Origin: a virus
Length of the DNA stretch: 64,000 bases
IMG/VR virus record: IMGVR_UViG_3300045988_173726
Coordinates: 1 to 64,000 of that record
Reading direction: 5' to 3' (one strand)
The notes under the pieces are model-generated. The model was not told the origin of the DNA and made no database searches. It saw only the letters and a list, made by a program, of their open reading frames with translations. Both the position numbers and the translations under genes were made by a program. This document shows positions 1,061 through 62,052 of the stretch, one piece after another (positions within the stretch are counted from its first letter, which is position 1; each line of letters opens with the position of its first letter).

Positions 1061-1287
1061 AGTCTTTAATAACAGTCCTATATAGATGTATTCAACGCAA
1101 GACAGTTGAGCATCTCCCTGTAGGACGGAGTTTACTAGAAATTCTGACAATAATTTTCATTGTGTGGCTACGGTTGAAATGAGATGAGTTAGGATGGAAT
1201 AGGTTAACCGTAAGACCTTGAGTTGAAAAACTCTAAAATTGAGCTAGAGATGCGAATTTCTTAAAGTTCGCATTTTCTAGTTACGGT
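1061..1287 (+). ncRNA. omega-RNA-like conserved 3' tail of element copy 1
   Basis: About 230 nt are conserved in all three copies. Shared hairpins are GATGTATTCAAC-GCAAGACA-GTTGAGCATC and GAGTT-loop-AACTC, plus a terminal hairpin ATGCGAA/TTCGCAT (1250-1273) followed by TTTTC. Conservation ends at 1287. The RNA start is unknown and may overlap the CDS. Confidence 0.55.
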
Positions 1288-1472
1288 TAACGATTGATTT
1301 AACTGCGGTAAGGCGTGTAAGCGAGGTAGTTATTGAAGATGGGATTTATTTTGGGGGCGGGAAGTTTCCGAAGTTAACGAGGGTTAGGATTCTTGGAGTT
1401 ACGGATAAGCAACTTCGTGGGATTACGTTTCCGAGCGGTTGTGAGATAGGAGGGGGCAGTGAAGGTAGATAA
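1281..1472 (+). pseudogene. C-terminal remnant of an array LRR paralog severed by element copy 1
   Basis: The frame after the element reads LTIDLTAVRRVSEVVIEDGIYFGGGKFPKLTRVRILGVTDKQLRGITFPSGCEIGGGSEGR*. This matches paralog C-termini (LTIDARY...FPNLVELTLIG...KVPKGCKV). The stop at 1470-1472 overlaps the next gene's GTG start, as elsewhere in the array. Confidence 0.7.
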
Positions 1473-2949
1473 GAGTATTCCTTGGGTGAGGTTTTTGTTT
1501 ACAGGCTACAGAGAACATAGTAACGGAGCTATAAGCCATTATTGTTTTACGACTGTGACTTATAATCCAGCTAGTAAGGCTAAGATTTCCGATGGGAATA
1601 ACATAGTAGTGCCTCGTGAGAAGCTAAGTGCGTTTCTTTCAGTGAATAGCGGTGCAATTCTAGGTAATCCAGATTTTGATGACGGGAAGGTTAGGCGATT
1701 TAGTTGTCAGAGACAGGATGTCTTAGGCAATAATTACAATAGGAAGGGATTAGAGCTAGTATTTTATTTTGAAGAGGACAGTAATAATCTCTGGTATGTG
1801 ACTAGCAAAGGAGAAGTATTTGTTACATTGGGTTTTGAGGAAGTCTACGAAAAGTATCAAGGTATACTAAGCGGAGAGGTAGTCTTGCTTGAGAGTGATT
1901 TATTTTCTCCAAATTTTAAGACAGTAATTGAAGCCACAGAGGGGATGATTGAGCGTCTTAAATTGATAGAGGGGAGAAGCCGAATTACTGGGCAAGACTT
2001 AGCTAAGCTTAGGGTGTCTGGGTATGACTCTTCGGAAGGTGAAGTGCTTGTAGAGGCTGACGGGCTAATTGGGGAGAGTAAGACTGGGGTAAATGTTTAT
2101 CCAGAGGTTGTGAGTGAGGTAACAGTTTCGGAAGAGGATATGATAACCTCTCTGGTAAAGGTTTTTGATTTGTCTAGGTGTAGCTCGTTAAGGAATTTTG
2201 AGATAGGGAATACAAGGTATGCCCGTGTCGCTTTTAACGAGTCTATATCGCTTATATTTTCTGGGTCAGCACAGCGTATGGCATACGGTAGTTTCTATCC
2301 AAAAGCCAAGGAAGTTCGGGTAGTCGGGACGAGAGATGTATTATTTAAGGAGTTTATCTCGGTAGACGGGCATGTAACGCTTGACGGAGATATTTATGCA
2401 GAGCGGCTAACACTTAAAGAGTGTACAGGTTTATCTACGCTTAAAGTCTATGCTTGTCATGGAGAGGATGGTTATTACTGCCATAGAGAAGATGTCGGCT
2501 ATACTAAGAGTAAGATAGAGTTAGCACGCTTAGATACCGAGCATCTTGAGGTTCATAATTTGCAACTTAGTCTTGAGGATGAGTTAGAGATTTCGGGATG
2601 CAAGGACTTAAAGTATCTCACACTATCGTTTATTGAGCTTCCAGAGGAAGCTGTTCCGTTTAATCTTACTGATTTCTTGTCTGGATACGGTAGCATAAGA
2701 GGATTTGGTTTAGAGGGTCTTGAGCGCCTTACGATAGACGCAAGGTACTCTGGCTATTGTCTTTCGGATGGTGTAATAACGCATTTTGATACTGAATTTC
2801 CGAATCTGGTTGAGCTTACGCTTATCGGCATATTAACGAATAAGCTGAATAAGCGGTTAGAGTTTGATTGTAAACTAAAAGTCCCGAAAGGTTGTAAGGT
2901 AAATTGTGGAGATGAGGAGTTAGCGAGAGAGTTTATTTTTCATGATTGA
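1459..2949 (+). CDS. Array paralog 1: N-module + LTGxD core + cysteine-containing LRR protein, function unknown
   Basis: 496-aa ORF. Motifs: RITGQDL, GVNVYPEVVSEVTV, VKVFDLSRCSSLRNFEI, LEISGCKDLKYLTL, and C-terminal FPNLVELTLIG...KVPKGCKV. Confidence 0.85.
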   Translation: MKVDKSIPWVRFLFTGYREHSNGAISHYCFTTVTYNPASKAKISDGNNIVVPREKLSAFLSVNSGAILGNPDFDDGKVRRFSCQRQDVLGNNYNRKGLELVFYFEEDSNNLWYVTSKGEVFVTLGFEEVYEKYQGILSGEVVLLESDLFSPNFKTVIEATEGMIERLKLIEGRSRITGQDLAKLRVSGYDSSEGEVLVEADGLIGESKTGVNVYPEVVSEVTVSEEDMITSLVKVFDLSRCSSLRNFEIGNTRYARVAFNESISLIFSGSAQRMAYGSFYPKAKEVRVVGTRDVLFKEFISVDGHVTLDGDIYAERLTLKECTGLSTLKVYACHGEDGYYCHREDVGYTKSKIELARLDTEHLEVHNLQLSLEDELEISGCKDLKYLTLSFIELPEEAVPFNLTDFLSGYGSIRGFGLEGLERLTIDARYSGYCLSDGVITHFDTEFPNLVELTLIGILTNKLNKRLEFDCKLKVPKGCKVNCGDEELAREFIFHD

Positions 2950-2957
2950 GGTAAAGT

Positions 2958-4212
2958 ATGAATATAGAGATGCCAGCGGTACGGCTTTTGTTTAGCGGTC
3001 GGGACGCTGCGGGTAAGTATATTTTTACAGTTCTCTCGTATCGTCCAGACACATACGGACTGTTTATAGGGGATAACGCTCTTAGTGTAACAGCGGATAT
3101 GTTAGAGGGGTTTTTATCAGAAAATAAGGGGATAATTATTGGGGATATAGGGCTTAACTTAAAGGAAGGAGACGCGGTTGCTTTTGCTTATATAGAGGAT
3201 GTTTTGTTCTACTTAGAGAACGGTACCATATCAAGGGCATTCGAGAGTAGGTTAACGAATCTTCTCAAGCGTATTTGCCGAGGTGAGGCATATCTTTTTG
3301 ACAGTGGGTGGGTTACCAAGGAGATTTATCAGAAATTAGCTGTTATTAAGGGAGCAGAGGAAACACTTTTTAAGGCAACTGCGAGGAATAGCCTAACTAG
3401 GGCAGATTTATCACATGTAGACATAGATGAAGTTGTAGACGGAGAAGTTAGCTTTTCAGCTACAGGCTTGAGGGGGACAAATAGCGGAGTTACGATTTAT
3501 TCGGATATAGTTAGTAAGGTTACAGTTAAAACAGCAGACATTGAGAATTCTGGCGTGAGTGTGCTTGACATGTCGAATTGTAATAGACTTAGAGAGTTTG
3601 TAATTGGTGATAGCATACGATTTGCCAAGGGTTCCTCGAAGTCTGTTGCTGTTATTTTTCCGAGTGTAACCGAGATAAACCCTTATGGGAAGTTAGTATT
3701 TCCTGCGAGAGAGATAAAGCTTTTCGGTAGATGGAGCGCTTAGTGTTGAATCTTGTAATATTGTGGATTGCTCGTGTGGAGCAGAGCTTTGTTTACGGGT
3801 GATTGATAGTGGGCGCAGTGGTTATGATAATATCAAAGTTGGAGTGTCTGATATAGAGAAGCTTTCCATTAGAGCTGATAGGTATGATGACTGGAGAAGA
3901 AAGTGTTTTTTTCTCGGAGAGTGTGCTGGTCTGCGTGAGATTTGTATAGATGTTTCGGTAGGTGGAAAGGCAGTTTGGTTCGGGGAGTTTATCGACTACA
4001 TATTTGCATCTGGTTTAACGAAATCTTTTGTCTGTGTTTCTGAGATTACGGTTAAGCTTTCTGGCGGTGTATACATGATTGGGGACAAAGAGTATCTAAT
4101 GAAAGACATCTTTCCGAACCTTAAGAGGCTAACGATTTGCGGTAGAAAGACAGCGGGAGACGATAGAAACTTGATTGTACCTGAAGGTTGCAAGATAGTT
4201 TATAAGGAGTGA
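2958..4212 (+). pseudogene. Array paralog 2, split by a frameshift into ORFs 2958-3743 and 3763-4212
   Basis: The first ORF holds the N-module and core (LTRADLS, GVTIYSDIVSKVTV, VSVLDMSNCNRLREFVI). The second holds the LRR tail (FPNLKRLTICG...IVPEGCKIVY). The second frame is already open from 3718. Removing one T from TTTT at 3721-3724 fuses them as ...EIKLSVDGALSVESCNIVDC..., which matches sibling ...FISVDGHVTLDG.... Confidence 0.65.
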
Positions 4213-4216
4213 GTTT

Positions 4217-5656
4217 ATGGGCGGGGTATTCAAGTTACGGATTGTGCTTTCTGGGCGGTTGGATTCAGAGGAGACAGTCTATAGGTTTTCTGTTTTGCAG
4301 GGGATGGGTGGGTTAGATGGCGAAATTTCGGCAGTTTATGTAAAGGAAGAAGAGCTTGAGGCATTCCTACTTGAAAATAAGAGTCGGGTGCTTGCTCTGG
4401 AAGGTATGAAAGAGAGGGCAAAGTATTTGCCTGTATTTCCAGAGAAGGTGAAGTCAAAGACGGATAGTAGCTGTGTAAAGAGCGGTAAGTCGCAGTTAGT
4501 ATCCTGTGCAAAAGAAGATGGTGTGTATCGGGTAGGGTTTTTTAATAGGCGCGGTGAGTTTCTATCGGAATACGGGGATGGTGTGTTAAGTCGTCTGTTG
4601 GGCGATGTATTTTGTGGGAAAGCGATTCTGCTCAAGAGTGAGTTGATTGATAGTTCAGTGTATGAGCTGTTGTCTGGGATGTCCGACAAGATGAGCGAGG
4701 TACTTAACGACTTATCGCGTGGTAAACTAACAGGTGGCGACCTGTCGGAGTCCTCGATTAACGGTATTTTCGGGGCTAGTCCTACTGTTAAGTCCGAAGG
4801 TCTTAAGGGGGTCGGAAACGGAGTAAATATCTACTCAAAGTATGCTTCCAGTGTTTCGGTGGAAGCAAGTGAGATTCAAGCTACAGGAACAGTGATATTA
4901 GATATGTCAAAGTGTAGTTTGCTTTCAGAGTTTAGCTTATATGATGAATGTGACGATGATGACCTTCCAGAAACTTGCCTAGATAAGCTAACTTTGATTT
5001 TTCCGAGTGGGGTAGGGAATTTAAGAGGAGACTCGTTTACGGTTAGAGCAGAGGAGCTTTGTATCCAGAATTTAGAGGTTCTGGGGTCTTTTAACGAGGT
5101 TGCGCTTTATGACGCAGAGCTTTCGGGTGTAAACGAGATAACGGCAGAGTACATTGTTATTGACGGCTGTAGTGGGATTGATAAATTAACTATTTCAGCT
5201 CCGTGGTACAGCAAAAATCTTGGAGATATAACATTGTGCGATTTGCCTACGCTTTCGGAGCTTACGGTGAACAGATTTCAAGTTGCGGTTAATGCTAAGA
5301 CAGTGTTAATTATTGAGGACTGCCAGAAACTACGCAAGGTTTATTTGAATTGTGTTGCAACGAATCTTTCTTGTGCGCTTGATTTAGCGAGGTTTGGCGG
5401 GGATACGGAAGAGGGAGGCAGATTGTTTTCTCAAGCGGACACAAGTATTAGGGAGTTAAGTGTCGAGTGTAGCTGGTTTTCCTGTAGTGAGCGCATGGTT
5501 GACATTACACGGGAGTTTCCAGATTTAGAGAAGCTGTGTTTAACAGGGAACCTAGAGATAAATCAATCAGATTTTATATTAGTTGTTCCGAGAGGCTGTA
5601 CGGTAGATTGTAGTGACCGTAGGCTTCGGTCTAAGGTAGTGTCGCGACAGGAATAA
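4217..5656 (+). CDS. Array paralog 3 (N-module + LTGxD core + LRR)
   Basis: 479-aa ORF. Motifs: KLTGGDLS, GVNIYSKYASSVSV, VILDMSKCSLLSEFSL, FPDLEKLCLTG...VVPRGCTVDC. Confidence 0.85.
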   Translation: MGGVFKLRIVLSGRLDSEETVYRFSVLQGMGGLDGEISAVYVKEEELEAFLLENKSRVLALEGMKERAKYLPVFPEKVKSKTDSSCVKSGKSQLVSCAKEDGVYRVGFFNRRGEFLSEYGDGVLSRLLGDVFCGKAILLKSELIDSSVYELLSGMSDKMSEVLNDLSRGKLTGGDLSESSINGIFGASPTVKSEGLKGVGNGVNIYSKYASSVSVEASEIQATGTVILDMSKCSLLSEFSLYDECDDDDLPETCLDKLTLIFPSGVGNLRGDSFTVRAEELCIQNLEVLGSFNEVALYDAELSGVNEITAEYIVIDGCSGIDKLTISAPWYSKNLGDITLCDLPTLSELTVNRFQVAVNAKTVLIIEDCQKLRKVYLNCVATNLSCALDLARFGGDTEEGGRLFSQADTSIRELSVECSWFSCSERMVDITREFPDLEKLCLTGNLEINQSDFILVVPRGCTVDCSDRRLRSKVVSRQE

Positions 5657-5679
5657 GTTTATTTTATGAGGGGGCAGAG

Positions 5680-7146
5680 ATGAAGCATAAGTTTGACACA
5701 TTGTCAGAGGCTTGGTATGCGGTAGCTTTAACTGGGTATTACTGCGAGAGCGGGGATATAGCTTCTCACTATGTATTTACAGTTCTTAAGGTATATGGGA
5801 GTTTTTCAGAGCTTGATAAGGTAGATGTAGAGGGTTTTAGCGTTTTAGAGCGGATTTTCGTCAAGAAAGATAGGCTTAAAAGGTTTTTAACAAGCGGGCA
5901 TGGGGCGATTTTAGGTGCAGTTAAGGAGCATAGTACTCCTGTAAGTGTAGAAGGTATCAACTATGTAGACAAGCTAGCAGAGTATAGCAAAGACGGAACT
6001 GTTATCAAGAGCGGTGTCATGATTCAAGTTCTTACGATTAAGAAGTCTGGGGCTATCGTTTATCTAAACGAGTTAGGCGAGGTAGCGGAGACTGGAGATA
6101 AGGAGTATTTGGTAGATTGTCTCTTAAACAGTAGGGTAGTCTCACTTTATTGTCGTTCTGGTCGCCCTTTGGAATTTGAAAGGAGAGTTGCATCTGTTTT
6201 TGACCGTATCTTATCTAGCTATTCTGACTATGTTCTAAGGAATGCTCGTGATAGTTTTCTTCGTTCAGATTGTTCAAAGACAGATGTTCGTATCGGGAGT
6301 GATTTAGTGCTGGAAGTAACGGCTTCTGGTCTTAGCGGTAACGGTTGCGGGGTGAACAAGTACGGAGACTGGGTAAGTACTGTGATTGTAAGCACGGATG
6401 ATTTGCATGCTACTAATAATTCCGTTTTAGATATGGAAGATTGTGTGCATTTATCTAGGTTTGAATTAGACTGTGGAAGTGCAAATGCTTTTCCGCATTT
6501 ATCAATTATATTTCCAAAGGGCATATCAAAGTTAAGTGTAGATAGATTTTGGATTAACACAGGGAAGCTACACCTATTAAATCTTCCGAAGAATATTTCT
6601 TATGGGGATGTTTCTATAACTGGTGCAAGGATAGAGGGTCATACTGGTGAGTTTATTACGAATAGGCTTAGTTTGCGTGGGATAAGCGGGTTAAGCGCTG
6701 TGTCTTTGCATCAGCTAAGAAGAGACAGGGATGCAGAGACAGAGATTAGCGGTTGCAGTGATTTAAGGCGGATTAGTCTGTATTTTGATTTGGACGAAAG
6801 GGGTTATAGATATTTTTCTCTTAAGATAGCTGGGTGTGTGGAGTTAGAGGAGCTTCTTATAGAGATAAACAAACAAGAGCCATTGGAACTAGCTGTATTC
6901 TGTGGCGCTCATTTACTTAGTATGGCTGGAACTCCGAAGTTAAGTAGCCTAACGATACGGTGCGACGCAGGATTTATCTTTAGTCCGATAGAGGGTTGGG
7001 AGTTCTTAGACTTTTCAAGGTGTTTTCCGAGTCTTAGAGAGTTTTGTTTAATCGGGGAGTTTAGTGGTGAAAGTGCTGGCGGTAAGATTATAGTGCCAAG
7101 AGGCTGTAAGGTAAGCGGATGGGGGTTAGAGATAGAGGAGGCATAA
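5680..7146 (+). CDS. Array paralog 4
   Basis: 488-aa ORF. Motifs: LRSDCS, GVNKYGDWVSTVIV, SVLDMEDCVHLSRFEL, EISGCSDLRRISL, FPSLREFCLIG...IVPRGCKVSG. Confidence 0.85.
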   Translation: MKHKFDTLSEAWYAVALTGYYCESGDIASHYVFTVLKVYGSFSELDKVDVEGFSVLERIFVKKDRLKRFLTSGHGAILGAVKEHSTPVSVEGINYVDKLAEYSKDGTVIKSGVMIQVLTIKKSGAIVYLNELGEVAETGDKEYLVDCLLNSRVVSLYCRSGRPLEFERRVASVFDRILSSYSDYVLRNARDSFLRSDCSKTDVRIGSDLVLEVTASGLSGNGCGVNKYGDWVSTVIVSTDDLHATNNSVLDMEDCVHLSRFELDCGSANAFPHLSIIFPKGISKLSVDRFWINTGKLHLLNLPKNISYGDVSITGARIEGHTGEFITNRLSLRGISGLSAVSLHQLRRDRDAETEISGCSDLRRISLYFDLDERGYRYFSLKIAGCVELEELLIEINKQEPLELAVFCGAHLLSMAGTPKLSSLTIRCDAGFIFSPIEGWEFLDFSRCFPSLREFCLIGEFSGESAGGKIIVPRGCKVSGWGLEIEEA

Positions 7147-8559
7147 GTGGATAGGTGCTATGTTCTGTCTGGTATTCTTTTAGACGATAACGGGGAAGAG
7201 GTAGGAATTCGGTATCAAGAGCTTGATTCTTCTATAACGGTGATATGTAAGAAAGATGAGGTCAATGACTTTCTTTTAAGTCATGAGGTCTACGGCGGCG
7301 GGGATTTTTGTGTAGCGCGGGTGGATGCCACGACAGGAGAGGTAATAAAGAAGGGTCATATTAAGTTAATTAGCATTGTTTGGTTTCGTGATACTGCTAA
7401 AGGTGTGAATCTAAGGTTTCGACTTCGTTACCTAGACAGTAGTGGAGAGTATAAAGACAAAATTTTATCGCTTGATGAATGCTTAGATACCCTGCATCGC
7501 CTAGAGGGGGAAGGGGCTACAGTGGTAGACGAATACCCGAAAAGTGATAGCCTTAAGCCTTATCTATTGTTTATGTGCGGGATTCTTTATAGCGAGGCAT
7601 ATCAACTTGAGCGGAGCAGGGCGCGGCTTACGAGAGAGGATTGCTCTAAGGTTTCCGTTTATTATGACGAAGATACAAGGCGCTTAGGGTTACAAGCTAT
7701 CGGTATGGTGGGACAGTCAAACGGAGTAAATAGATATTCTGCGTTTGTAAATCGGATAGAGGTGAGTAGTGATGATTTAGCGCGGGCTTTGGTAAAGGTG
7801 GTAGATTTAAGTCGTTGCGATAGGCTTAGAGAACTTAGCTATAGTGCTTCGTTGAATCATGTAAGTTCCGATAATTCGATGGTTATGGTATTTCCGAAGT
7901 GGGCAAGTAAGGTGATGGACGAGCGGAGTCTTGTTATCGAGAAATTAACGATTGGCAAAGGTCGGTTTGAGTTTCGTAATTTCCCCTCTGGAGCGGTATT
8001 TAAGAAGCTTACAGTAGTCAGCGGAGCAGAGTTAGCGGGAGACATTGGTTGCTTTAGGGCAGAGACAGCGGTTTTAGGGGCTGTTTCAAAATACGGCACG
8101 CTAAGAGGTCTTAAACACTTGTTTATCCGAGTTCCGTTATCTAATGATACAAACATTTTTGTATGTGACACAGATTCAGAGGAGATAAGTATAGAGTATG
8201 AAGCTGGGTTTTATAAAAACACTCTTTCGATTTTGAACTGTAAAGTGCTTAAAAAGGTAACGATAGTGAATCATGAGGTTATCGACTTAGTTAGGGTGTT
8301 GAAAGGTATAAAGAACTGTGAGGCGCTTACAGAGCTTACAATCGTGGCAGAATATTACAAGTCGCGCGTTGAAATGGGAGCAGGAAAGCTATTGCATGTT
8401 CTTGGATGTGACGGATACAAGAACCTAAAGGTGTTACGAATAATAAAGAAAGGGAATAAGGAAGATGAGATGCAACCAAACGCCATGTTTCAAGTACCGA
8501 AAGGTTGCGTTGTTATGTGTAACAGTAGTGAAGTGGGACGCTTCATCGCATACAGGTAA
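7147..8559 (+). CDS. Array paralog 5
   Basis: 470-aa ORF whose GTG start abuts the upstream stop. Motifs: RLTREDCS, GVNRYSAFVNRIEV, VKVVDLSRCDRLRELSY, ILNCKVLKKVTI, QVPKGCVVMC. Confidence 0.85.
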   Translation: MDRCYVLSGILLDDNGEEVGIRYQELDSSITVICKKDEVNDFLLSHEVYGGGDFCVARVDATTGEVIKKGHIKLISIVWFRDTAKGVNLRFRLRYLDSSGEYKDKILSLDECLDTLHRLEGEGATVVDEYPKSDSLKPYLLFMCGILYSEAYQLERSRARLTREDCSKVSVYYDEDTRRLGLQAIGMVGQSNGVNRYSAFVNRIEVSSDDLARALVKVVDLSRCDRLRELSYSASLNHVSSDNSMVMVFPKWASKVMDERSLVIEKLTIGKGRFEFRNFPSGAVFKKLTVVSGAELAGDIGCFRAETAVLGAVSKYGTLRGLKHLFIRVPLSNDTNIFVCDTDSEEISIEYEAGFYKNTLSILNCKVLKKVTIVNHEVIDLVRVLKGIKNCEALTELTIVAEYYKSRVEMGAGKLLHVLGCDGYKNLKVLRIIKKGNKEDEMQPNAMFQVPKGCVVMCNSSEVGRFIAYR

Positions 8560-8570
8560 GAGGAGTTTAT

Positions 8571-10061
8571 ATGGATTATAATAGAGACCCTATGGATTTT
8601 AGCCGTCATGAAGATAAAGCCTATTTTATGATAGGGAATCTTGTATCTATTGGAGAGGTTGTAGGCAAGAGGTTTATAGGGTTGCCGTGATTTGCAGAAA
8701 AGATTTGTCTTGGTGGAGTTTTGCCAGAGACAGTGGATGTGAAGATGGAAGATATGGACGATTTCTGTAATCAGCACATCACTTACGGGGTGTTCGGGAA
8801 TAAGGAGCTAAATGAAGTTTCCTTTGAGAGTAGGGAGGTAATAGATGAGGTCAGTAATCGTCTCTTGCAGTTAGACTTGCACGAGTATCCGCATAAGCTT
8901 GAGAGTGAGAGGATTGTTTACGAGATTCACTATATTGATGCGGTAGGCTTGTATCGGTCAAGGATGTTAAATAGCTTAGAGGCAGTTTTAGATACACTAC
9001 AGGGGCTAAACGCGGTAATGTTTGAGAGTTTTCCACAGAGCAAGAAGTTTCTCCCGTATTTAGAGTTTAATCGAAGGGGGCATCTACAGGAGATTAAGAA
9101 TGGAAGGGCTGTAAGCGGGGATTGTTCGGGGGTAAGTCCTTATATGGACAAGAAGGCAGGGAAGATTAAGCTTTTCGCTTATGGGTTTCTGGGTAATTCT
9201 ACAAATGGTGTCTGTCGGTTTTCAAAGTTTATCAGTAAGGCTAGGGTAGAGGATGATGGCGCACGGGTAAGTGATGTTCGTGTTTTAGATTTTAGTCAGT
9301 GTAGTCGTCTTTCTAGCATAGTTTACAATCACCTAATAGACGAGCAGAAGTATTATTCAGAGAATATGTCGATAGTGTTTCCGAAGTTTGTAGTTAAGAG
9401 TGATAGGTGTTTGTGCGCAGAAGAGTTTAATATAAGCGCCAGAAAGTTTCAGTTTGTAAATTTTTCAGAGAATGTAATATTTGAGCGACTTAGAATATTG
9501 GGTGGTGTAGAGATTGTAGGCGCAGATGACTTTTTCACGGTAGCGCATGGGTTTATCGGGGACGGGAAGGAGACTGTTACAGGGCTTAAAGAGTTAAAGG
9601 TAGGCAATGCGCTAGATAGGACTGTTGGTAGAGACTCGTCTTTGCATATTATAGACACAGATTCCGAGGAGATAACACTTGTATTATACCGTGTCGCTTT
9701 TCCAGAAGAGGATAGGAAGTATTTTGAGATAAAGAACTGTAAGGAGCTTAGAAAGCTTACCGTAATTTGCCCCTTTGGGCTTGATTTAGGCGTGATATTG
9801 CGTGGAATAGAGGGTTGTGACGCACTTACGGAGATTGTAATTAGTGCAAATGTTTTTCGTGGAGCATCCGTAAGTACGGCGAACAGAAAACGGTTCGGGT
9901 TTGCGGAGGAAATCGGATATAAAAACTTAAAACGGCTTGAGCTTAAAGGTCTAGGCTGGGAAGAGTTGGATAGGCAGTTTAATGTATCTGTACCTAATGG
10001 TTGCGAAGTGGTATGTAACAATAAGAAGTTAGCGAGTCGAATTATAAAAGAAAAGGAGTAA
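8571..10061 (+). pseudogene. Array paralog 6 with a single in-frame TGA at 8688-8690
   Basis: ATG 8571 (RBS AGAGGAG) opens MDYNRDPMDFSRHEDKAYFMIGNLVSIGEVVGKRFIGLP*. The same frame then continues FAEKICLGGVLPETVDVKMEDMDDF... into the 8721-10061 ORF. The interrupted part aligns to the N-module of paralog 5. Downstream motifs: SGDCS, GVCRFSKF, VRVLDFSQCSRLSSI, IKNCKELRKLTV, SVPNGCEVVC. Confidence 0.6.
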
Positions 10062-10066
10062 GGGAT

Positions 10067-11761
10067 ATGTCTGACGCAAAGCGGGTTTATATGGTAGTCG
10101 GAGAGCTGGTAGGAGAGGACGATAAGCACTTAGGGGTGTGCGTTGACGAGATGATTTTAACGCAGAGGAAGCTTGAGTTTTCAGAGAGGAAAGACCTGTC
10201 AGACGAAGAGTTTCGGAAGTTCTTGATAGAGCATGGAAGTGATACGCTTGATTTTTCGGATGGTGCGCTTCGGGTGCGGCTTTCGGAGCTTCCGAAGGTG
10301 ATGCTTGACTCTAGGGGCTATTATCGTTGCAGGAAGCGCGGTGTTCAGCAGTTTATATGGGATTCTGCGGGGATTTTATACTACATAAATGACTCGGGTG
10401 ACTTCTGCACTGTCTCAATTAAGGTCGGGGAGTCGATGCGCAAGGTGTTAAACGCGCCCTGTCGGTTTGTAGAGGGCTTTCCGCGTGTAGGCAAGTTTAT
10501 TAAGACTTTACGGGAAAGCAAGAAGCAGTCAAATGCGAAAGTGGGGGAGAGAAGTCGCAGTAAGTTAACGGGAAGCGATTGTTCGTTAAAAGAGCAGAGA
10601 GTAGTAGACGGAAAATTAGAGTTAGTTGTTAGCGGGTTTAGTGAGTCCCGTAATGGTGTTTGCAAGGTAGATAGTGCTGTTACGATGGTCGATGTTCATT
10701 GGGGAGACATCGTGTACGGTAATGTGCGGGTGCTTGATTTAAGCGCCTGCGCGTGGCTCCATGAGGTAAAGGTGCAGGCTAACGTAACGGGTAGAGACAG
10801 TAAGGTAACGGAGTCGTTTGCTTTGGTTTTGCCGAAAGTAGAGACAGAGGTTTCTGTTTCTTTAGCCGCGAATACGAAGCGTGCTGACTTTAGGCTAGCC
10901 GAGTCTGCGAGGTTTAAGTCCTTGGAGTTATCGAAATGCGAGGTACTAGGGCTTGACGGGGAGAGAAGCATATGGTATGGAAGCTTTTTACACTGCACAG
11001 GTCTTAAGAGTCTTAGATTAGGCAGTGTTACGGGGGGTAATGGAATTTATCTAAATGACTGTGACACAGAAGAGGTAACGCTTAAGGGTTGGAGTGGAGT
11101 AAAGGAGATACGAAACTGCACGAAGCTAAAGAGAGCAGTAATCATGTGCGAGTCGATAGATGTCTCTGATTTGCTTAATCTTGTAAAGGATTGCAGGAGT
11201 TTAGAGCGAGTATACTTGCACATTGGGTATTTAATAGGAGAGGGAGAGTTTTATAATAGGTATAAGGACGCCTTGGCTATTCTAAACTTTGGTTCTTCCA
11301 AGTTAAAGAGTGTTCGGATAGACATTAGAGACGGAATTAGGCTTAAGGATTCACTTTGTGTGATGTATGACAGCAAGGTAGAGTTTAGTAGTAACAGTAA
11401 AGAGTTGGAATCTCATTTTAAGGCAGTGAATTTAAGCACTGAAATGAGAGATTTCGCTACACTCTTAGCGTATTTTCCGCTTAGAGTTATAGATGATAAG
11501 CTAAATTGTTGTATAGAGGTACAGCGCGGGGATTGGATAAGGCTACAAGAGGCAGAAGGTAACAGCGTTTATAGTAGGGAGACTCTTATATTACCAGACA
11601 AAATCGAGCGGGTAGTAGGGTTGTCAGAGTTTTACGGAAGTAAGGATAGCGGTGTAGCCTTAAAGAAGCTTGTGGTTAGGCATCCTGTTGAGATAAGCAA
11701 GACAGTGTATGAGAGTATCGGAGAAATCGAGGGGAAAGAGAATTTAAGAATCGTGGGATAA
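10067..11761 (+). CDS. Array paralog 7 with an extra C-terminal extension
   Basis: 564-aa ORF. Motifs: KLTGSDCS, GVCKVDSAVTMVDV, VRVLDLSACAWLHEVKV, IRNCTKLKRAVI. The last ~120 aa (LILPDKIERVVGLSEFYGSKDSG...) are absent from the siblings. Confidence 0.85.
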   Translation: MSDAKRVYMVVGELVGEDDKHLGVCVDEMILTQRKLEFSERKDLSDEEFRKFLIEHGSDTLDFSDGALRVRLSELPKVMLDSRGYYRCRKRGVQQFIWDSAGILYYINDSGDFCTVSIKVGESMRKVLNAPCRFVEGFPRVGKFIKTLRESKKQSNAKVGERSRSKLTGSDCSLKEQRVVDGKLELVVSGFSESRNGVCKVDSAVTMVDVHWGDIVYGNVRVLDLSACAWLHEVKVQANVTGRDSKVTESFALVLPKVETEVSVSLAANTKRADFRLAESARFKSLELSKCEVLGLDGERSIWYGSFLHCTGLKSLRLGSVTGGNGIYLNDCDTEEVTLKGWSGVKEIRNCTKLKRAVIMCESIDVSDLLNLVKDCRSLERVYLHIGYLIGEGEFYNRYKDALAILNFGSSKLKSVRIDIRDGIRLKDSLCVMYDSKVEFSSNSKELESHFKAVNLSTEMRDFATLLAYFPLRVIDDKLNCCIEVQRGDWIRLQEAEGNSVYSRETLILPDKIERVVGLSEFYGSKDSGVALKKLVVRHPVEISKTVYESIGEIEGKENLRIVG

Positions 11762-11812
11762 GGCTGTTTCTTTAGCAAAGATATAGACAGTGAGTAGAGC
11801 AATGTGTTAAAA

Positions 11813-11865
11813 TAGAGCCGATGTGGAGAGGTAGCAAGTTTCCTGTCGGCTCTAGTCGTTTATTT
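11813..11865 (+). terminator. Hairpin plus T-rich tract ending the first array operon
   Basis: TAGAGCCGA (11813-11821) pairs with TCGGCTCTA (11846-11854) around a 24-nt loop, followed by GTCGTTTATTT. Confidence 0.45.
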
Positions 11866-12034
11866 GGGGGTCGTGGAGACAGGGGCAGTCGGGCTTCTCA
11901 AAAAGCGCAGAAAAATTTCGGTGAAAATTAGGGTTAATACCAGTTGGTAAAAACTAGTAAGACCTATAGCAAAATTTTTAAGCACCTAGTGGTAGCTTTT
12001 GTACTTTAGAAACAAAAATTAGGCTCGTGAAGGG
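11855..12034 (+). repeat. Conserved intergenic module, member A
   Basis: GTCGTTTATTTGGGGGTCGTGG, then GCGCAGAAAAATTTCGG, AAAATTAGGG, an A/T-rich middle, and TTGTAC-N17-GGCTCGTG. It shares the exact 13-mer TTTGGGGGTCGTG (11863-11875) with 28628-28640 and further blocks with members B, C and D. Confidence 0.6.
11999..12029 (+). promoter_or_regulatory. TTGTAC-N17-GGCTCGTG box (twin of 52463-52493)
   Basis: TTGTAC (11999-12004), a 17-nt A-rich spacer, then GGCTCGTG (12022-12029). 26 of 31 positions are identical to the box at 52463-52493, with identical spacing. It ends 5 nt before the 12035 ORF. Confidence 0.4.
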
Positions 12035-13021
12035 TTGGTAGGTCGGAGGCTATTAAATAGTGCTAGAATAAGAATCGGGTTGGGCAGGGGGGAAGAAGTG
12101 ATAGAGGACAAGTCTTTTAAGCAGAGTGTCGAGTATGCCCGAGGTAAGTTTACGGGGATGGATTGCGGAGTTTACGATGAGAGGGGAACGAGCCTTTCTG
12201 TAATCGGTCTTGAGCGGTCGGTAACAGGAGTTTATGTGCTTCCGAGTGCCGTGACGGGAGTTTTTCTTAACAGGGAGGCTATAGCGAAGAGTGGTATTAA
12301 GGTGCTGTCGCTTGAGAATTGTAGTAATCTTCGTAAGTTTGAGATACAAAACCCAACAAATCCTATGGTAGAGAGTCCGCTTTGGGAGCTGACGCTTGTT
12401 TTACCAAAGGAAGCGCCATGTCTAAGTAAGGTGGCAGTTAACTTAATATGTCATAAGTTCCGTTTAATTGGGGAATGCAATGGGATTGATTTGTCGCTCT
12501 ATTTGTGCAGTGAGTTAGAAATAAACAAGTCTGTTATGGACAATGCAAAGTCTCTATACTTCTCAAGTTGTAGCGGCATCGCGCGTATTTGTTTACCTGA
12601 AACTAACATAGCTGATTCGGTTTATCTGGTAAACACTGCTACTGAGCATCTTTCCTGTCATTTACGCAGTAATGGGCTAGGGATTACAAACTGTTGTAAG
12701 CTAAAGGTTATGTCAGTGTGGTTTGAGCGACTTGACGCACACTTGTTTTCGGGCTATACGCGCCGTAGAATTATTAGCTTAGAGGAGATTCATATAAAGG
12801 TTTCGAGGTTGTTCTTTTCAGAGATATGCCTTAGTCATGAGCGAGTAATAGATTTCTCATATGTTTCAAGAGTTCTTAAAACGATTAGTTTTACGACAGC
12901 GGATGGGTTTCGGGCAAGCAACTTCGATTCTGATAAGAGGTATAAGCTAATCGTGCCTAGTAAAGCGGAGTTTACAATGAGCAATGAGCTAGAGCCTTAT
13001 TTTGAGGTGGTTAGAAAGTAG
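12035..13021 (+). CDS. Array paralog 8, naturally lacking the N-terminal module (start codon uncertain)
   Basis: 328-aa ORF. KFTGMDC is already at about residue 38, followed by GVYVLPSAVTGVFL, IKVLSLENCSNLRKFEI and C-terminal LIVPSKAEFTMSNELEPYFEVVRK. The TTG start is taken from the track and there is no clear RBS. Confidence 0.7.
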   Translation: MVGRRLLNSARIRIGLGRGEEVIEDKSFKQSVEYARGKFTGMDCGVYDERGTSLSVIGLERSVTGVYVLPSAVTGVFLNREAIAKSGIKVLSLENCSNLRKFEIQNPTNPMVESPLWELTLVLPKEAPCLSKVAVNLICHKFRLIGECNGIDLSLYLCSELEINKSVMDNAKSLYFSSCSGIARICLPETNIADSVYLVNTATEHLSCHLRSNGLGITNCCKLKVMSVWFERLDAHLFSGYTRRRIISLEEIHIKVSRLFFSEICLSHERVIDFSYVSRVLKTISFTTADGFRASNFDSDKRYKLIVPSKAEFTMSNELEPYFEVVRK

Positions 13022-13023
13022 GG
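12986..13023 (+). repeat. 38-nt near-identical direct repeat at paralog 3' ends (partner 14455-14492)
   Basis: GAGCTAGAGCCTTATTTTGAGGTGGTTAGAAAGTAGGG versus GAGCTAGAGCGGTATTTTGAGGTGGTTAGAAAGTAGGG is 36/38 identical, while the gene bodies are strongly diverged. Confidence 0.8.
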
Positions 13024-13026
13024 GAC

Positions 13027-14490
13027 ATGAAGGCACATGAGTTTATCGCGTGTCCGCGTGAGCGGTATAAGCAAGGAGATACTGACAGAGACGGCTTTAG
13101 TTATATAAATGGTGTAGTCAGTAACGAGCAGGGGGAGACTCGGTATTGGGTTACTGAGTGCTATCGTGGCGGGCTACAAAGCGGGAGTGTAGCGCCTATC
13201 TCGTACATGTTTAGTGTAGATGAGCTTTCAGCGTATGTTATAGAGGTTGGTTCGCGGATGGTTGACTATAGTTTTCGCGCGAATTTCGAGCCTTCTAAGG
13301 ACGGTTATTACCTTCGTGATTATACTGATATTAAAGGCAGGATTCCTGTTTATGAGGAGCGCGGTGGTGAGCTTATACTAAAGAAAGAGGGTAGCCCTCG
13401 TAGAGTAACGTATGGTGATAGAAAGACATTTCTTTGCATTGACTCATTAGGTGAGATTAAGGAAGTGCCGAAAGTGGAGTTGAACAAGATTGGTGGCGAG
13501 TTTAACTCTTGTAAATTGAAATCAGCTAGTCAATATGACATACTGTGGGAGTTAGATTTACTTGCCTTTCGTGACAGCGATGAGTTTAAGCTTGCAGAGG
13601 CTAGAAACAAACTAACTGGGGCAGACTGCGCAGAGTATTACGATGAGCAATCTGATATTGCTGGTGGTCTTTCTGTGGTTGGCTTTGGCAGGAGTGCCAC
13701 AGGAGTTTGCCGTGTATCTGGGGCTACAACTAGAGTTAATTGTAGCGATGAGAGTTTTAGCAAGAGTGGCGTTGAGGTATTGTCACTGGAGGATTGCAAG
13801 TATATTAAATCTTTTGCTATTAAGCATAAGGATGGGGTTAGATTGAAACGGCTTTCAGTGATATTTCCAAATAATCCAATCAAATTTCCTTATTTTTTAA
13901 TAATTAGATTTAATTATATCGAGGAAGTGAAGTTAATTGGTGAGTTACCTAACCTTAGCTTAGATATGTCAAATAATAGGCTTAACATCAGTGACTATAT
14001 TATGCAGAATGCGCACAGTTTAAGATTTAACGGTTGCAGTGGGATTCCAAAGGTAACCTGTAGTCCGTTTGTTCTCAAGCTTTGCGACACAGATACCGAG
14101 TATGTATCTTGTTCTTTACGACATACTAAAGGAAGCCCGTTTAGTTATGCTTATATTAAGGGTTGTAATTCGTTAAGGTATGTAAGAATTGACTACAGCA
14201 GGTTTTCCATTAGAGAATTTAATGCCTCTATCCAAGATTGTCCTTGTTTAGAGGAGTTATGTGTCACAATGAAAGAGATTTATCTGCACTATCATGAAAC
14301 AGATAGTCGCGTGATTGACTTGCTTGCTTCATTTCCGAAGCTTAAGAAGATAATTTTTTCAGCGCCTTGGCTCTTTAATGTGATAGATGAGCGTTACGCA
14401 CTGGGTACGTGGAAGTTAATTGTGCCAACCGAGGCAGAGGTTATGCTTAGTGGGGAGCTAGAGCGGTATTTTGAGGTGGTTAGAAAGTAG
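13027..14490 (+). CDS. Array paralog 9
   Basis: 487-aa ORF. Motifs: KLTGADC, GVCRVSGATTRVNC, VEVLSLEDCKYIKSFAI, IKGCNSLRYVRI, LIVPTEAEVMLSGELERYFEVVRK. Confidence 0.85.
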   Translation: MKAHEFIACPRERYKQGDTDRDGFSYINGVVSNEQGETRYWVTECYRGGLQSGSVAPISYMFSVDELSAYVIEVGSRMVDYSFRANFEPSKDGYYLRDYTDIKGRIPVYEERGGELILKKEGSPRRVTYGDRKTFLCIDSLGEIKEVPKVELNKIGGEFNSCKLKSASQYDILWELDLLAFRDSDEFKLAEARNKLTGADCAEYYDEQSDIAGGLSVVGFGRSATGVCRVSGATTRVNCSDESFSKSGVEVLSLEDCKYIKSFAIKHKDGVRLKRLSVIFPNNPIKFPYFLIIRFNYIEEVKLIGELPNLSLDMSNNRLNISDYIMQNAHSLRFNGCSGIPKVTCSPFVLKLCDTDTEYVSCSLRHTKGSPFSYAYIKGCNSLRYVRIDYSRFSIREFNASIQDCPCLEELCVTMKEIYLHYHETDSRVIDLLASFPKLKKIIFSAPWLFNVIDERYALGTWKLIVPTEAEVMLSGELERYFEVVRK

Positions 14491-14492
14491 GG
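14455..14492 (+). repeat. Partner of the 38-nt repeat at 12986-13023
   Basis: See 12986-13023. Confidence 0.8.
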
Positions 14493-14498
14493 AACGGT

Positions 14499-15950
14499 AT
14501 GCCAAAGTTTATCGAGGGGAAAGCGCCGCTAGTGATTAGGAAAAAGCGGGTTGGAAGAGAGGCGGCTGGAGTTTACTTTGTCATAAAGGGTATCGTCGTA
14601 GACTGTGCAGGGGAGATAGTAGAATATCTTGTGACTCGGTTTCGGATAGACAATACTAATAGGTTAGCCGAGACAGAGAGTAGGACTGACGAATACAGTG
14701 AAGAAGAGTTTATAACGCTGGTTTCAGAGTTCGGGCATTTGTTTGCGGATTACAGGCTTGATGGAAATGAATATAAGCTTCGGTATACAGAGTTTCCAGT
14801 TTATCAGATGTTTGATGGTGCAGTAAGAGAATTGAAGTTGTTCAAATATAGTAAAGAGAGATTCTTAGCTTGTCTTGCAGATGACGAAATACTATTTGTA
14901 GATAGCATGGGTGAACTTATGCGCGGAAGTGTGTCGACTCTTTTAAGTGTCAGCATTTCACCTTCGGAAATGTTGGTTGGTAGCCTTGGAAAAAGGGTTG
15001 ACCGTAGGTATTTTACATTTGTTCGCGATTATAGGAAAAGCGATGCTTATATAAAGGAGTCAGCTAGGCGTAGGATGGTTGGTGATAGCTGTTGTTGTCT
15101 CATTCCGAGCAGTGAGCAGTTTTCGTTGTCGTATGTTGCAAGGCTAAAGGGAGTTAGTCATACAGGGGTATGCAGTGTTCCGTCTCTTGCGACCGTGTTC
15201 TACTGTTTTGGCAATGATTTAGATGAGAGCGGGGTTAAAGTAATTTCGTTTGAGAAATGCCTAGGGCTACGGAATATTAATATGAAATGCGGCAATGATT
15301 TTAGGGATAGAATAGCCGTAGTTTTGCCAAGCAGGAGTTTGTTTGGCGCTCCAAAAGTTTATATTGGGGCGTGTTGCAAAGAGTTTAGACTGGATGGATA
15401 TTGTAAACGGATTGAGCTATCTCTAACTAGGGTAGAGCATTTTGAGATAGACCCGAAGAGTTTATCTAACGCAAAGCAAGTGTATTTTGCGGTATGCAGG
15501 GGATTAAAGTCTTTGACCTTTAATAGAATAAGTGGCGTAATGCTGTACGATACAGACACAGAAGAAATTTTCTGTCGTGTTCCACTCGGAGTAAACGGGT
15601 TTCATAGAGGGATTAGGATAGAGAAATGTCTAGCGTTAAAACTCGTGAGGTTAAGTTCGGATAAGTTTAATCCAAGTGTGGTTGGAGGAATTTTTAAGGA
15701 GTGTGATAACTTGGAGGAGCTTTCTATCGAGGCTGACAGTTTGGTTCGTGACAGTTTGGTTATAGACCTTTGTAGCATCTCAAAGAAGTTGAAGCGATTT
15801 AGCCTAACACTTACTTCTAGGTTTAGCCGCGATAAAGCTATTTTAGGTGGCGCAGAGGGATGCGAGATTATTGCGCCTAGGGGAGCGGAGGTTAAGTTAG
15901 AGGGGAACGGAGTAGATTTAAGTAAGTATTTTACGGTGACATATAAGTGA
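14499..15950 (+). CDS. Array paralog 10
   Basis: 483-aa ORF. Motifs: MVGDSCCC, GVCSVPSLATVFYC, VKVISFEKCLGLRNINM, IEKCLALKLVRL, IIAPRGAEVKLEGNGVDLSKYFTVTYK. Confidence 0.85.
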   Translation: MPKFIEGKAPLVIRKKRVGREAAGVYFVIKGIVVDCAGEIVEYLVTRFRIDNTNRLAETESRTDEYSEEEFITLVSEFGHLFADYRLDGNEYKLRYTEFPVYQMFDGAVRELKLFKYSKERFLACLADDEILFVDSMGELMRGSVSTLLSVSISPSEMLVGSLGKRVDRRYFTFVRDYRKSDAYIKESARRRMVGDSCCCLIPSSEQFSLSYVARLKGVSHTGVCSVPSLATVFYCFGNDLDESGVKVISFEKCLGLRNINMKCGNDFRDRIAVVLPSRSLFGAPKVYIGACCKEFRLDGYCKRIELSLTRVEHFEIDPKSLSNAKQVYFAVCRGLKSLTFNRISGVMLYDTDTEEIFCRVPLGVNGFHRGIRIEKCLALKLVRLSSDKFNPSVVGGIFKECDNLEELSIEADSLVRDSLVIDLCSISKKLKRFSLTLTSRFSRDKAILGGAEGCEIIAPRGAEVKLEGNGVDLSKYFTVTYK

Positions 15951-22074: not shown

Positions 22075-22086
22075 AGGGGGTAGGTA

Positions 22087-38505: not shown

Positions 38506-38743
38506 AGAGTGTTTCAAAGATAGCCTTATCCTATATAGATGTATCAACGCAAGACAGTTGAGCATCTCCCTGTAGGATGAAGTTTAATAGAAGCTCTGAC
38601 AACAATTCTTATTGTGTGGCTACGGTCGAAATGAGATGAGTTAGGGTGGAATAGGTTAACCGTAAGACCTTGAGTTGTAAAACTCTAAAATTGAGCTAGA
38701 GATGTGAATTTCCTAATTTATTTTCTCATTTTCTAGTTACGGT
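38506..38743 (+). ncRNA. omega-RNA-like conserved 3' tail of element copy 2
   Basis: Hairpins at 38538-38566, 38672-38685 and 38702-38729. AACCGTAA (38658-38665) is complementary to both CTACGGT (38620-38626) and the terminal TTACGGTT (38737-38744). Confidence 0.55.
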
Positions 38744-38826
38744 TTGAGCTAGCAGAGCTTCCGAAAGATGTAGTTGTTTATCGGGATGGAGTTCGTGTGG
38801 ACGATAAAGTGCTTACGTTTCAGTAA
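38737..38826 (+). pseudogene. Displaced 3' end of the HolA-like gene (candidate)
   Basis: An open frame runs from just after the element's TAG to TAA at 38824-38826. Deleting 37087-38743 joins the 35895 ORF in frame to IELAELPKDVVVYRDGVRVDDKVLTFQ*. It ends 11 nt before the next ATG. Confidence 0.4.
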
Positions 38827-60296: not shown

Positions 60297-60412
60297 TTGG
60301 TAAGTCAGTGGTTTCAAACAATATAGAAGAAAGTTGAAATAATTCTCGATTTACATGTTTTTCATTAAGGATGGTTTTGTTAGGATATGTCGTATTGTGG
60401 AGAGGAATTGAA

Positions 60413-61971: not shown

Positions 61972-62052
61972 CGAGGGAAGTAGTGTCGGCGGCGAGCGTA
62001 CCGGTGGGTTTAACAGCACTGTAGATAGATAAGAGAGGGAAGCGAGGTAGAG

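Follow-up and report, generated by a model that had tools for sequence, protein, structure and literature searches.

A tandem array of strongly diverged leucine-rich repeat genes in a phage-like element, probably of Clostridia

The array and its members

The DNA analysed, a stretch of 64 kb here called the window, carries at 1288–15950 eleven paralogues of one family, 20–33% identical to each other and numbered M0 to M10, which follow the end of an insertion sequence (IS):

104–1060, + strand: 3' part of a TnpB-like (IS605 orfB) gene, an ORF truncated by the window start, with IS605-orfB-I RNA downstream
1075–1290, + strand: IS605-orfB-I (omega-type) RNA (Rfam RF03065, 196.7 bits, E 9e-47); right end of the IS at 1287
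1288–1458, + strand: M0, IS-cut C-terminal remnant (last 56 codons), translation ...FPKLTRVRILGV...FPSGCEIGGG
1459–2949, + strand: M1, intact, 496 aa; family HMM E 2.5e-127; orthologues 70–88% identical; modelled with AlphaFold2 (AF2)
2958–4212, + strand: M2, pseudogene in two pieces, 2958–3743 and 3763–4212, matching HMM positions 5–288 and 304–456
4217–5656, + strand: M3, intact, 479 aa; HMM E 1e-109; dN/dS 0.27–0.34
5680–7146, + strand: M4, intact, 488 aa; HMM E 3e-108; dN/dS 0.20–0.30
7147–8559, + strand: M5, intact, 470 aa, its start adjoining the M4 stop; HMM E 1e-106; dN/dS 0.25–0.29
8571–10061, + strand: M6, with an in-frame TGA at 8688–8690; longest ORF 8721–10061, true start at 8571 (frame translation)
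10067–11761, + strand: M7, 564 aa, with a C-terminal tail at ~11429–11761; HMM E 7e-115
11762–12034, + strand: conserved intergenic region with a promoter-like site (11784–11813) and a hairpin (11813–11854)
12035–13021, + strand: M8, 328 aa, short form lacking the N-terminal region; HMM positions 157–468 only; dN/dS 0.16–0.29
13027–14490, + strand: M9, intact, 487 aa; HMM E 8e-115; dN/dS 0.26–0.39
14499–15950, + strand: M10, intact, 483 aa, final member of the array; HMM E 1e-104

When the ten ORFs and fragments of the family in the window were compared, all were found to be mutually related (BLASTP best-HSP E 1e-54 to 1e-3) and each matches the family HMM (E 1e-22 to 1e-127). The alignment consensus returned the motifs listed in the initial annotation, RxRLTGxDCS, GLxGSxNGV, VKVLDLSxCxxL, IFP and VPxGCxV, together with the cysteine-containing repeats eiekCkkLkeltie and likgCpsLeelsi; the D and C of LTGxDC are not invariant and the C-terminal YFEVVRK is present in M8 and M9. 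In an NJ tree adjacent genes are the closest paralogues of one another, which points to tandem duplication. The three subfamilies proposed earlier were broadly recovered as (M1–M4), (M5, M6) and (M8–M10), but M7 attaches only loosely to M5/M6.

The window genome (W) was compared with six relatives (A–F, assemblies from IMG/VR and ENA). The same syntenic array was found in all six (five contigs from IMG/VR, one from ENA), where it reaches ~27–27.6 kb upstream of M1 and spans in full 34–38.5 kb with ~20–23 genes, so that the window covers only its 3' end, about the last third. The claim of at least 11 strongly diverged tandem paralogues thus holds and was an understatement, and a single conserved copy was not seen in any of the relatives compared.

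All five irregular members described initially are real. The TnpB-like ORF before M0 is paralogous to TnpB ORFs at 37174–38505 and 60371–61744, each with the same RNA downstream, and the sequence common to all three IS copies of the window runs up to the right end ...AGTTACGGT, beyond which they diverge. Homology between M0 and an intact orthologue of 495 aa in L001 starts at 1288 (blastn), which upholds the IS-severed member and moves its beginning from 1281 to 1288. The frameshift in M2 is due to a 53-bp deletion near 3721 when compared with intact orthologues in genomes A, C and F, while the TGA in M6 replaces a Cys codon (compared with the intact relative P0037). The short form of M8, without N-module, is kept in five relatives (A, B, D, E and F), and the tail of M7 (110 aa) shows homology (E 9e-6) with the first part of the longer tails, bearing Pfam LRR_5, of upstream members.

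Turnover and selection

Each genome has its own set of lost, duplicated or damaged members, with ~13–27% of the members broken per genome. Genome B has lost five genes (M3–M7), M6 is present in C and D and missing from A and F, and genome D carries one extra copy. With a tree that groups adjacent genes, independent lesions, and gains as well as losses, the array is a birth-and-death multigene family, as had been proposed. The same cannot be said of the comparison with a gene accordion, a model known from poxvirus K3L in which near-identical tandem copies are amplified recently. Here no near-identical tandem copies were found; each paralogue has its own orthologue in other genomes, 46–98% identical, which in comparison with the low identity among paralogues shows that the duplications are old and that copy number changes as old, distinct members are lost or gained.

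Selection was estimated as dN/dS between orthologues. The array genes gave 0.16–0.40 compared with 0.01–0.21 for flanking genes, showing that they are under purifying but relaxed selection and that the family is fast-evolving relative to its neighbours, as first suggested. In pooled pairwise NG86 estimates scaffold columns of the alignment showed values of 0.08–0.16 and variable columns 0.33–0.35, the N-terminal module is among the least conserved parts of the proteins, and for M10 the orthologues are only 61–69% identical with dS 0.6–1.06. There was no sign of pervasive positive selection, since by this measure no region had a dN/dS near or above 1 and the highest windowed value was 0.55. At this resolution, therefore, the mark of an arms race that counter-defence binders should carry does not show.

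Protein architecture

The family proteins are ~330–790 aa long with 8–21 Cys each, and no transmembrane segment or signal peptide was found in them, features from which a cytoplasmic location is likely. The AF2 model of M1 (pLDDT 81.9, pTM 0.74) contains a beta-beta-beta-alpha unit (residues 9–62), a second alpha/beta unit (99–143), a helix (151–177) and, from residue 183 to 494, ~20 short strands spaced every 10–25 residues, and a separate model of residues 1–240 (pLDDT 82.5) gave the same secondary structure. Each protein is accordingly modelled as tripartite: ~170 aa of alpha/beta structure, specific to the family, at the N-terminus, then a long helix whose end is marked by R.LTGxDC, and lastly an LRR solenoid, predicted to be capped, irregular and cysteine-rich with ~ten turns and VPxGCxV at its end. 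The repeats are irregular, 11–33 residues long, and some members add a tail of BspA-type LRR_5 repeats.

A search of the family profile against PDB sequences returned LRR proteins only, the best being the F-box protein 9kkx_C (E 3.5e-10) and TIR1 (E 1.9e-5), with LGR4, NAIP5 and BRI1 lower; all matches lie within profile positions ~290–460 and the N-terminal half gave none. When 1.84 billion representatives were searched exhaustively with the HMM, the family appeared restricted to a clade, only 43 representatives scoring E < 1e-10, and the weak tail consisted of BspA-type LRR_5 surface proteins. These profile matches, to F-box/LRR and BspA-type LRR proteins, bear out the cysteine-containing LRRs noted at the outset; together with the strand pattern of the model they indicate tandem repeats forming a strand/turn solenoid, the defining trait of the LRR superfamily. 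The LTGxDC...GV core is not a functional domain of its own: in the models it corresponds to the helix end, the N-cap and the first LRR turns, and it is not an enzyme, because the profile searches match only LRR proteins.

The structure prediction and fold search proposed earlier thus yielded a solenoid model, for which Foldseek gave no significant match, even to LRR structures: the full model against PDB and BFVD, and the N-terminal 240 residues against PDB, returned nothing with E < 0.03 and TM-scores of at most ~0.3. The N-terminal alpha/beta region has no detectable relative and is a candidate for a new fold. The top BFVD hits, weak and non-significant, were entomopoxvirus LRR and F-box proteins.

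No window member matched Pfam or PHROGs, the family was not found in INPHARED phages, PLSDB, PDB or BFVD, a tblastn search with M9 against GenBank phages and PLSDB plasmids was negative, and literature searches found no description of the family. This agrees with the initial view that it is not a described phage system; nor did the profile searches place it in a known structural or enzymatic family, their matches being to LRR proteins only. The Pfam model PF13306 LRR_5 (gathering threshold 27.7 bits) matched none of ten window members at E <= 1, and 5 of 41 family members, through their C-terminal tails only. For the F-box, a three-helix Skp1-binding motif, no Pfam match was found in the family, whose N-terminal region is predicted as beta-beta-beta-alpha followed by alpha/beta, and Pfam likewise revealed neither an NTPase switch domain nor anything recognisable as an effector domain. 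Two further LRR_5 proteins are encoded in the window outside the array (46752–48413 and 52803–53720); the N-module was considered for both and rejected, as the N-module HMM found no other window protein.

The element, its host and the surroundings of the array

The carrier of the array is a phage-like element of ~260 kb, probably from gut or oral Clostridia, and the array, with >20 tandem, deeply diverged genes, makes up ~15% of its DNA. The element is classed as viral by IMG/VR, and the contigs of its relatives (five IMG/VR UViGs and one ENA contig) measure 214–268 kb. Among virion hallmark genes no capsid, portal, terminase or tail gene was found within the window, and PDB sequence searches with three large uncharacterised ORFs there, performed to see whether the element is a phage, gave no match; since the window holds no hallmark gene and three IS copies, the label phage rests on the IMG/VR classification. 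The PBP1A gene has its best cellular relatives in Hungatella (56–57%) and Jutongia (48%), which points to a host probably within Lachnospiraceae or a related group of Clostridia, and the TnpB gene, searched in GTDB genomes for a hint of the host, had no close relative there. A 270-kb jumbo prophage from saliva, assigned to Lachnospiraceae (PMC7782811), may be related to the element.

Nuclease, restriction, replication and helicase genes, and no structural genes, flank the array. A GmrSD_N+HNH gene lies upstream in the relatives; on the downstream side are a McrB-like gene, a McrC gene, a Dam methylase and, at a distance of 8 kb, a Cdc48-like AAA+ ATPase. As the GmrSD_N+HNH gene and the McrBC-like pair are both type IV restriction-like, the neighbourhood appears to be of a conflict type.

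Five genomes (W, A, D, E, F) share a conserved intergenic region between M7 and M8, including those in which M8 itself is only ~60% identical. Its promoter-like site has conserved hexamers, TAGACA and TA(A/G)AAT, separated by a spacer that varies, and could possibly be a promoter of host type before M8. The hairpin occurs once in the window; folding of the region gave a z-score of -0.6, with no global structure and only this one conserved hairpin, and promoter and terminator scans across the array found just as many sites as expected from shuffled sequence.

Possible function

The findings as a whole are best explained if the locus is the 3' third of an array of cytoplasmic, non-enzymatic LRR binders for host interaction or conflict. 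The analysis itself establishes the paralogy of the members, their architecture and LRR nature, how far the array extends, its turnover and the mode of selection; we infer the binding role, the site of action and the link to conflict, and give the reading as a whole a probability of about 0.5. Old tandem duplications produced the array, each copy then being kept under relaxed purifying selection and single copies being lost through IS insertion, deletion or nonsense mutation, or as part of a multi-gene deletion. The proteins would be made in the infected cell as binders without enzymatic activity, their conserved leucine/cysteine scaffold carrying a variable surface so that each paralogue may recognise a different partner, and jointly they could provide a repertoire that serves in host takeover, in counter-defence or in setting the host range.

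Unlikely, though worth weighing, is a reading of the proteins as adhesins or receptor-binding proteins (RBPs) displayed on the virion, a large set of alternative LRR fibres that would widen the host range or bind surfaces. BspA-type LRRs are typically extracellular adhesins, upstream members in the relatives bear BspA-type LRR_5 tails of which M7 retains a remnant, and the two further LRR_5 proteins of the window point the same way; virion proteins likewise have no signal peptide, and clusters of RBP genes, too, typically turn over by birth and death. However, the N-terminal module, the would-be anchor, is one of the parts least conserved, and no likeness to tail fibre, spike or baseplate proteins was found in PHROGs or, at significant level, with Foldseek in PDB and BFVD. 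The array moreover adjoins nuclease, restriction and replication genes rather than structural ones, the high Cys content suits a reducing compartment, and no virion is known to carry >20 different RBPs.

A programmable recognition repertoire of >20 LRR modules, in which a shared N-terminal domain would couple targets to one machine (the Cdc48-like AAA+ ATPase or a host protease) as an analogue of F-box/LRR substrate receptors, or in which an LRR sensor-effector set would act as phage-borne innate immunity, appears rather improbable. Equally doubtful is a phage-borne LRR sensor repertoire whose N-terminal effector, of no known fold, would protect the infected cell from phages or plasmids that compete with the element, in the manner of clustered immune-receptor genes. 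Such sensors would fit the position of the array between the GmrSD_N+HNH gene and the McrBC-like pair, birth-and-death evolution in tandem clusters being a hallmark of LRR immune-receptor loci, and an N-terminal region without known relative leaves room for an effector role. The link to sensors nevertheless comes from neighbouring genes, no NTPase switch or recognisable effector domain accompanies it, and M8 is conserved under purifying selection without the N-terminal region.

That the array is decaying, functionally dispensable DNA, a neutral remnant of past amplification, is very improbable: the broken members and the loss of whole blocks, such as M3–M7 in B, would suit it, but intact members combine their dN/dS of 0.16–0.40 with dS up to ~1.0, scaffold positions lie lower still, and orthologues are kept in synteny across six assemblies, so that values well below 1 largely refute it. 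An assembly artefact from collapsed or expanded repeats, raised in the initial annotation, found no support and has a negligible chance, as six independent IMG/VR and ENA assemblies show the same gene order and copies only 20–33% identical exclude confusion by the assembler.

Comparison with known systems

The closest match to the solenoid is given by the FBXL-type F-box/LRR proteins (TIR1, MAX2/D3, PDB 9kkx), which like the present family are Cys-rich, have CxxLxxL-type repeats and place an N-terminal non-repeat module before an LRR binder, and which are intracellular, as is likely for the family too. The family differs in its irregular repeats, in having no F-box and in an N-terminal region that is rich in beta strands and without relative; bacteria, as far as we know, have no SCF ubiquitin ligase. 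BspA-type LRR proteins (PF13306 LRR_5; Bacteroidota, Bacillota and Trichomonas) share true LRR_5 repeats with the tails of upstream members, whereas the main solenoid does not reach the LRR_5 model and the family has no signal peptide, anchor or sorting domain. Trichomonas, too, has a vast BspA-like expansion (PMC2843621).

Among multi-gene clusters of phages the array resembles, in its ten or more tandem paralogues, those of the jumbo Klebsiella phages PhiK64-1 and RaK2. In these multi-RBP clusters ~ten or more tandem paralogues have a shared N-terminal and a variable binding part, but the proteins are trimeric beta-helix depolymerases with conserved anchors, while the array encodes LRR solenoids whose N-module is poorly conserved and which resemble no fibre protein in the PHROGs and Foldseek searches. 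The LRR domains of YopM and IpaH/SspH are binders that act inside the target cell without signal peptide; the present family differs from them in lacking both a secretion signal and an effector domain, NEL or other, and no sequence match was found.

For the array of cytoplasmic LRR binders that we favour, a further parallel is offered by multigene families of large eukaryotic DNA viruses, such as the poxvirus ankyrin/PRANC host-range genes, ASFV MGF360/505 and the repeat-protein expansions of entomopoxviruses and mimiviruses, which show lineage-specific tandem expansion, birth-and-death turnover between strains and a large genome share. The array shares with them tandem repeat-protein binders, turnover and genome share, and differs in its bacterial host, in the lack of sequence homology and in the age of its copies, which are neither near-identical nor recently amplified. 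In giant eukaryotic viruses large, lineage-specific expansions of such binders are a hallmark of host manipulation, and from phages they have hardly been documented; here >20 such genes are kept under selection across strains of a phage-like element, probably of human-associated Clostridia, which would imply a substantial layer of protein-protein interplay with host or competitors. The family also provides a candidate for a new N-terminal fold and a natural library of LRR binders, and the pattern of losses from strain to strain gives a direct handle to link single paralogues to host genotypes.

The array in the window

All-against-all BLASTP of the tandem array (1288–15950, + strand; members M0 to M10 in order) joins every member to the others at 20–33% identity, with E-values down to 9e-54, and the motifs proposed in the initial annotation were recovered in a MAFFT consensus, so that its description of tandem paralogs with low identity holds. 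All plausible ORFs of at least 60 aa in 1459–15950 are located on the + strand and closely packed, with intergenic gaps of 0–23 nt, the exception being 273 nt ahead of M8. When the window was searched with a family HMM, matches were found in ten ORFs or fragments 3' of the IS-cut remnant M0 and nowhere else.

The five irregular members reported earlier were all confirmed. M0 is cut by an IS605-type element, recognised by its TnpB ORF and an Rfam IS605-orfB-I RNA (196.7 bits), whose right end lies at 1287 while homology of M0 to an intact ortholog begins at 1288. M2 is frameshifted by a 53-bp deletion, M6 contains an in-frame TGA at 8688–8690 where an intact relative has Cys, M7 carries an added tail of 110 aa, and M8 is a short form in which the N-terminal region is missing.

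The gap between M7 and M8 (11762–12034) is conserved in five genomes. Within it the hexamers TAGACA and TA(A/G)AAT (-35/-10-like, 11784–11813) are conserved and the 18-nt spacer between them varies; 3' of the hexamers follows a conserved hairpin (11813–11854) with a 9-bp stem, unique in the window. Judged from these elements, the gap is a plausible candidate for a host-type promoter of M8–M10.

The array in related genomes

A locus walk, with loci stitched, was performed through five IMG/VR UViGs (214–268 kb) and one ENA contig that carry a syntenic array (genomes A–F); contigs carrying M1 orthologs are 209–266 kb. Metagenomic variants of the family number more than 100, the clusters P0001 and P0017 comprising 149 and 143 sequences. 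In the relatives the family starts ~27.6 kb upstream of M1, so while the paralogs of the window stand, the proposed extent of 15 kb does not, the array being much larger: 38.5 kb and about 23 genes in genome A, corresponding to 15% of its 259 kb, and 34.4 kb and about 20 genes in genome B. Two small ORFs outside the family, of 233 and 101 aa and with no Pfam match, interrupt the upstream array part in relatives (L010 5815–6815, also L009).

Gene order is syntenic between the genomes but gene content is not. M3–M7 are missing from genome B and M6 from genomes A and F, genome D has one additional M8-like copy, and the split members differ from genome to genome; these differences in members lost, gained or split bear out the birth-and-death signs first seen in the window. 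A 22-bp tandem duplication together with a 1-bp insertion disrupts M2 of genome D; this lesion is independent of the 53-bp deletion in the window, and lesions of this type are not homopolymer errors. An assembly artefact as the source of the array is effectively refuted. In an NJ tree adjacent genes cluster together, the pattern expected from tandem duplication, and since orthologs share 46–98% identity whereas paralogs share 20–33%, the duplications are far older than the divergence of these genomes.

Rates of evolution

Pairwise Nei-Gojobori comparisons of the window with the six relatives gave dN/dS values of 0.16–0.40 for the array members (dS 0.03 to 1.06) and 0.01–0.21 for eleven flanking genes, indicating that the array genes have a function and that, in line with the fast evolution supposed for the family, they change several times as fast as the genes around them; neutral decay of the array is effectively refuted. 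By alignment column, the ratio is 0.08–0.16 in the scaffold and 0.33–0.35 at variable positions. Along the family HMM the ratio is flat (0.13–0.55), and at pairwise resolution no region approached neutrality or positive selection. Values of dS are close to 1.0 in M10 and in the M8 of genomes D and E, compared with about 0.2–0.3 in their neighbours, which hints at exchange of divergent alleles.

Sequence searches and predicted structure

No window member matched Pfam or PHROGs, the family is absent from the INPHARED phage genomes and PLSDB plasmids, and no description was found in the literature searched. When 1.84 billion representative proteins were searched exhaustively with the HMM, 123 matched with E <= 1e-3, 43 of them below 1e-10. 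Those strong matches that were aligned or inspected belong to the family, as members or fragments, and the weak tail, as sampled, consists of long multi-repeat surface proteins, 8 of the 10 scanned containing Pfam LRR_5 above threshold. Against PDB sequences the family profile found LRR proteins only (top match F-box protein 9kkx_C, E 3.5e-10; TIR1, E 1.9e-5), all confined to profile positions about 290–460.

An AlphaFold2 model of M1, built from a 41-sequence family alignment (pLDDT 81.9, pTM 0.74), predicts the following layout.

M1 residues 9–19, 25–35 and 43–52: strands, followed by a helix at 53–62; together the N-terminal ~70-aa module (N-module) of the initial annotation
M1 residues 99–143: a second small alpha/beta unit
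M1 residues 151–177: a long helix with R.LTGxDC at its end
M1, from this helix to the C-terminus: short strands

According to this model the LTGxDC...GV segment, earlier regarded as a conserved core, is instead a helix end, an N-cap hairpin and the first LRR turn (VKVLDLSxCxxL). In the alignment its D and C vary, with DL in M1, M2 and M3, making an active site at this position unlikely. For the N-terminal half, neither a Foldseek search of PDB, run on residues 1–240 modelled separately (pLDDT 82.5), nor a profile search of PDB sequences gave a match, and the full model found nothing significant in BFVD. As no LRR structure was a significant Foldseek match to the complete model, the predicted assignment to the LRR proteins rests on sequence profiles and strand pattern. 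No transmembrane segments or signal peptides were found in the family proteins, each of which contains 8–21 cysteines.

Genome context

Every substantial ORF of the window is on the + strand and the GC skew is near +0.33 (each 2-kb bin of 1–64000 lies between +0.26 and +0.38), an extreme and uniform strand asymmetry. The following features were identified.

Downstream of the array, +: guanylate kinase
Downstream of the array, +: PIF1-type helicase
21016–23142, +: adjacent McrB-like AAA_5 ATPase and McrC-family protein
23709–24578, +: single-domain classical AAA+ ATPase, Cdc48-like
25148–27988, +: full class A penicillin-binding protein (PBP; transglycosylase and transpeptidase)
30653–32180, +: adjacent DnaG-type CHC2 zinc-finger protein and D12-class N6-adenine DNA methyltransferase (Dam)
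Downstream of the array, +: PolA
46752–48413 and 52803–53720, +: two LRR_5 proteins
104–1290, 37174–38746 and 60371–61974: IS605-family element, TnpB ORF followed by Rfam IS605-orfB-I RNA (192–197 bits)
L010 1013–2197 and 2145–2387 (IMGVR_UViG_3300007316_000160): GmrSD_N+HNH endonuclease and small ribbon-helix-helix (RHH) protein, directly upstream of the first array member in relatives

The McrB-like/McrC pair is type IV restriction-like and element-borne, 98–99% conserved in the relatives with dN/dS of 0.01–0.04. The AAA+ ATPase is nearest to the Cdc48/p97/VAT D2 domains (E 2e-33 against PDB) and likewise 98–99% conserved. The nearest cellular relatives of the PBP are in Lachnospiraceae (Hungatella 56–57%, Jutongia 48%), a mere hint at the host. 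Relatives of the PIF1-type helicase, ~39% identical, occur on some 75 UViGs (L017–L091, IMG/VR, mostly 3300045988) of 11–48 kb, mostly about 45 kb, suggesting that it is shared with a widespread family of much smaller phages. The two LRR_5 proteins lack signal peptides and have BspA-type repeats (E about 1e-18); they show similarity to one another (E 6e-14) and, weakly, to tails found on array members further upstream, showing that LRR_5 modules are scattered over the genome. The three IS605 copies, with the common right end ...AGTTACGGT, are an unusual load for a phage genome. Since no virion hallmark gene was recognised within the 64-kb window, the designation as phage rests on the IMG/VR classification.

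Possible function

Most safely, the array is read as an LRR multigene family, so far undescribed and restricted to one clade, under birth-and-death evolution. A conserved hydrophobic and cysteine scaffold with variable exposed positions, and neither catalytic motif nor export signal, points to non-enzymatic binding proteins that would act in the infected cell, and the surrounding genes, rich in nuclease and restriction functions, suggest that they take part in conflict with the host or between elements; we give this combined reading a probability of about 0.5. The main alternative, that the genes encode a range of adhesins or RBPs displayed on the virion, is favoured by the BspA-type tails, but the proteins lack any fibre similarity, their N-module is poorly conserved and the neighbourhood is non-structural, leaving it rather improbable. 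A substrate-adaptor role, like a sensor-effector set of "immune receptors", is a possible but unlikely reading. Both LRR binders and viral multigene families are already known; what is new is a tandem LRR array of >20 genes that takes up 15% of a phage-like genome and has a new N-terminal domain.
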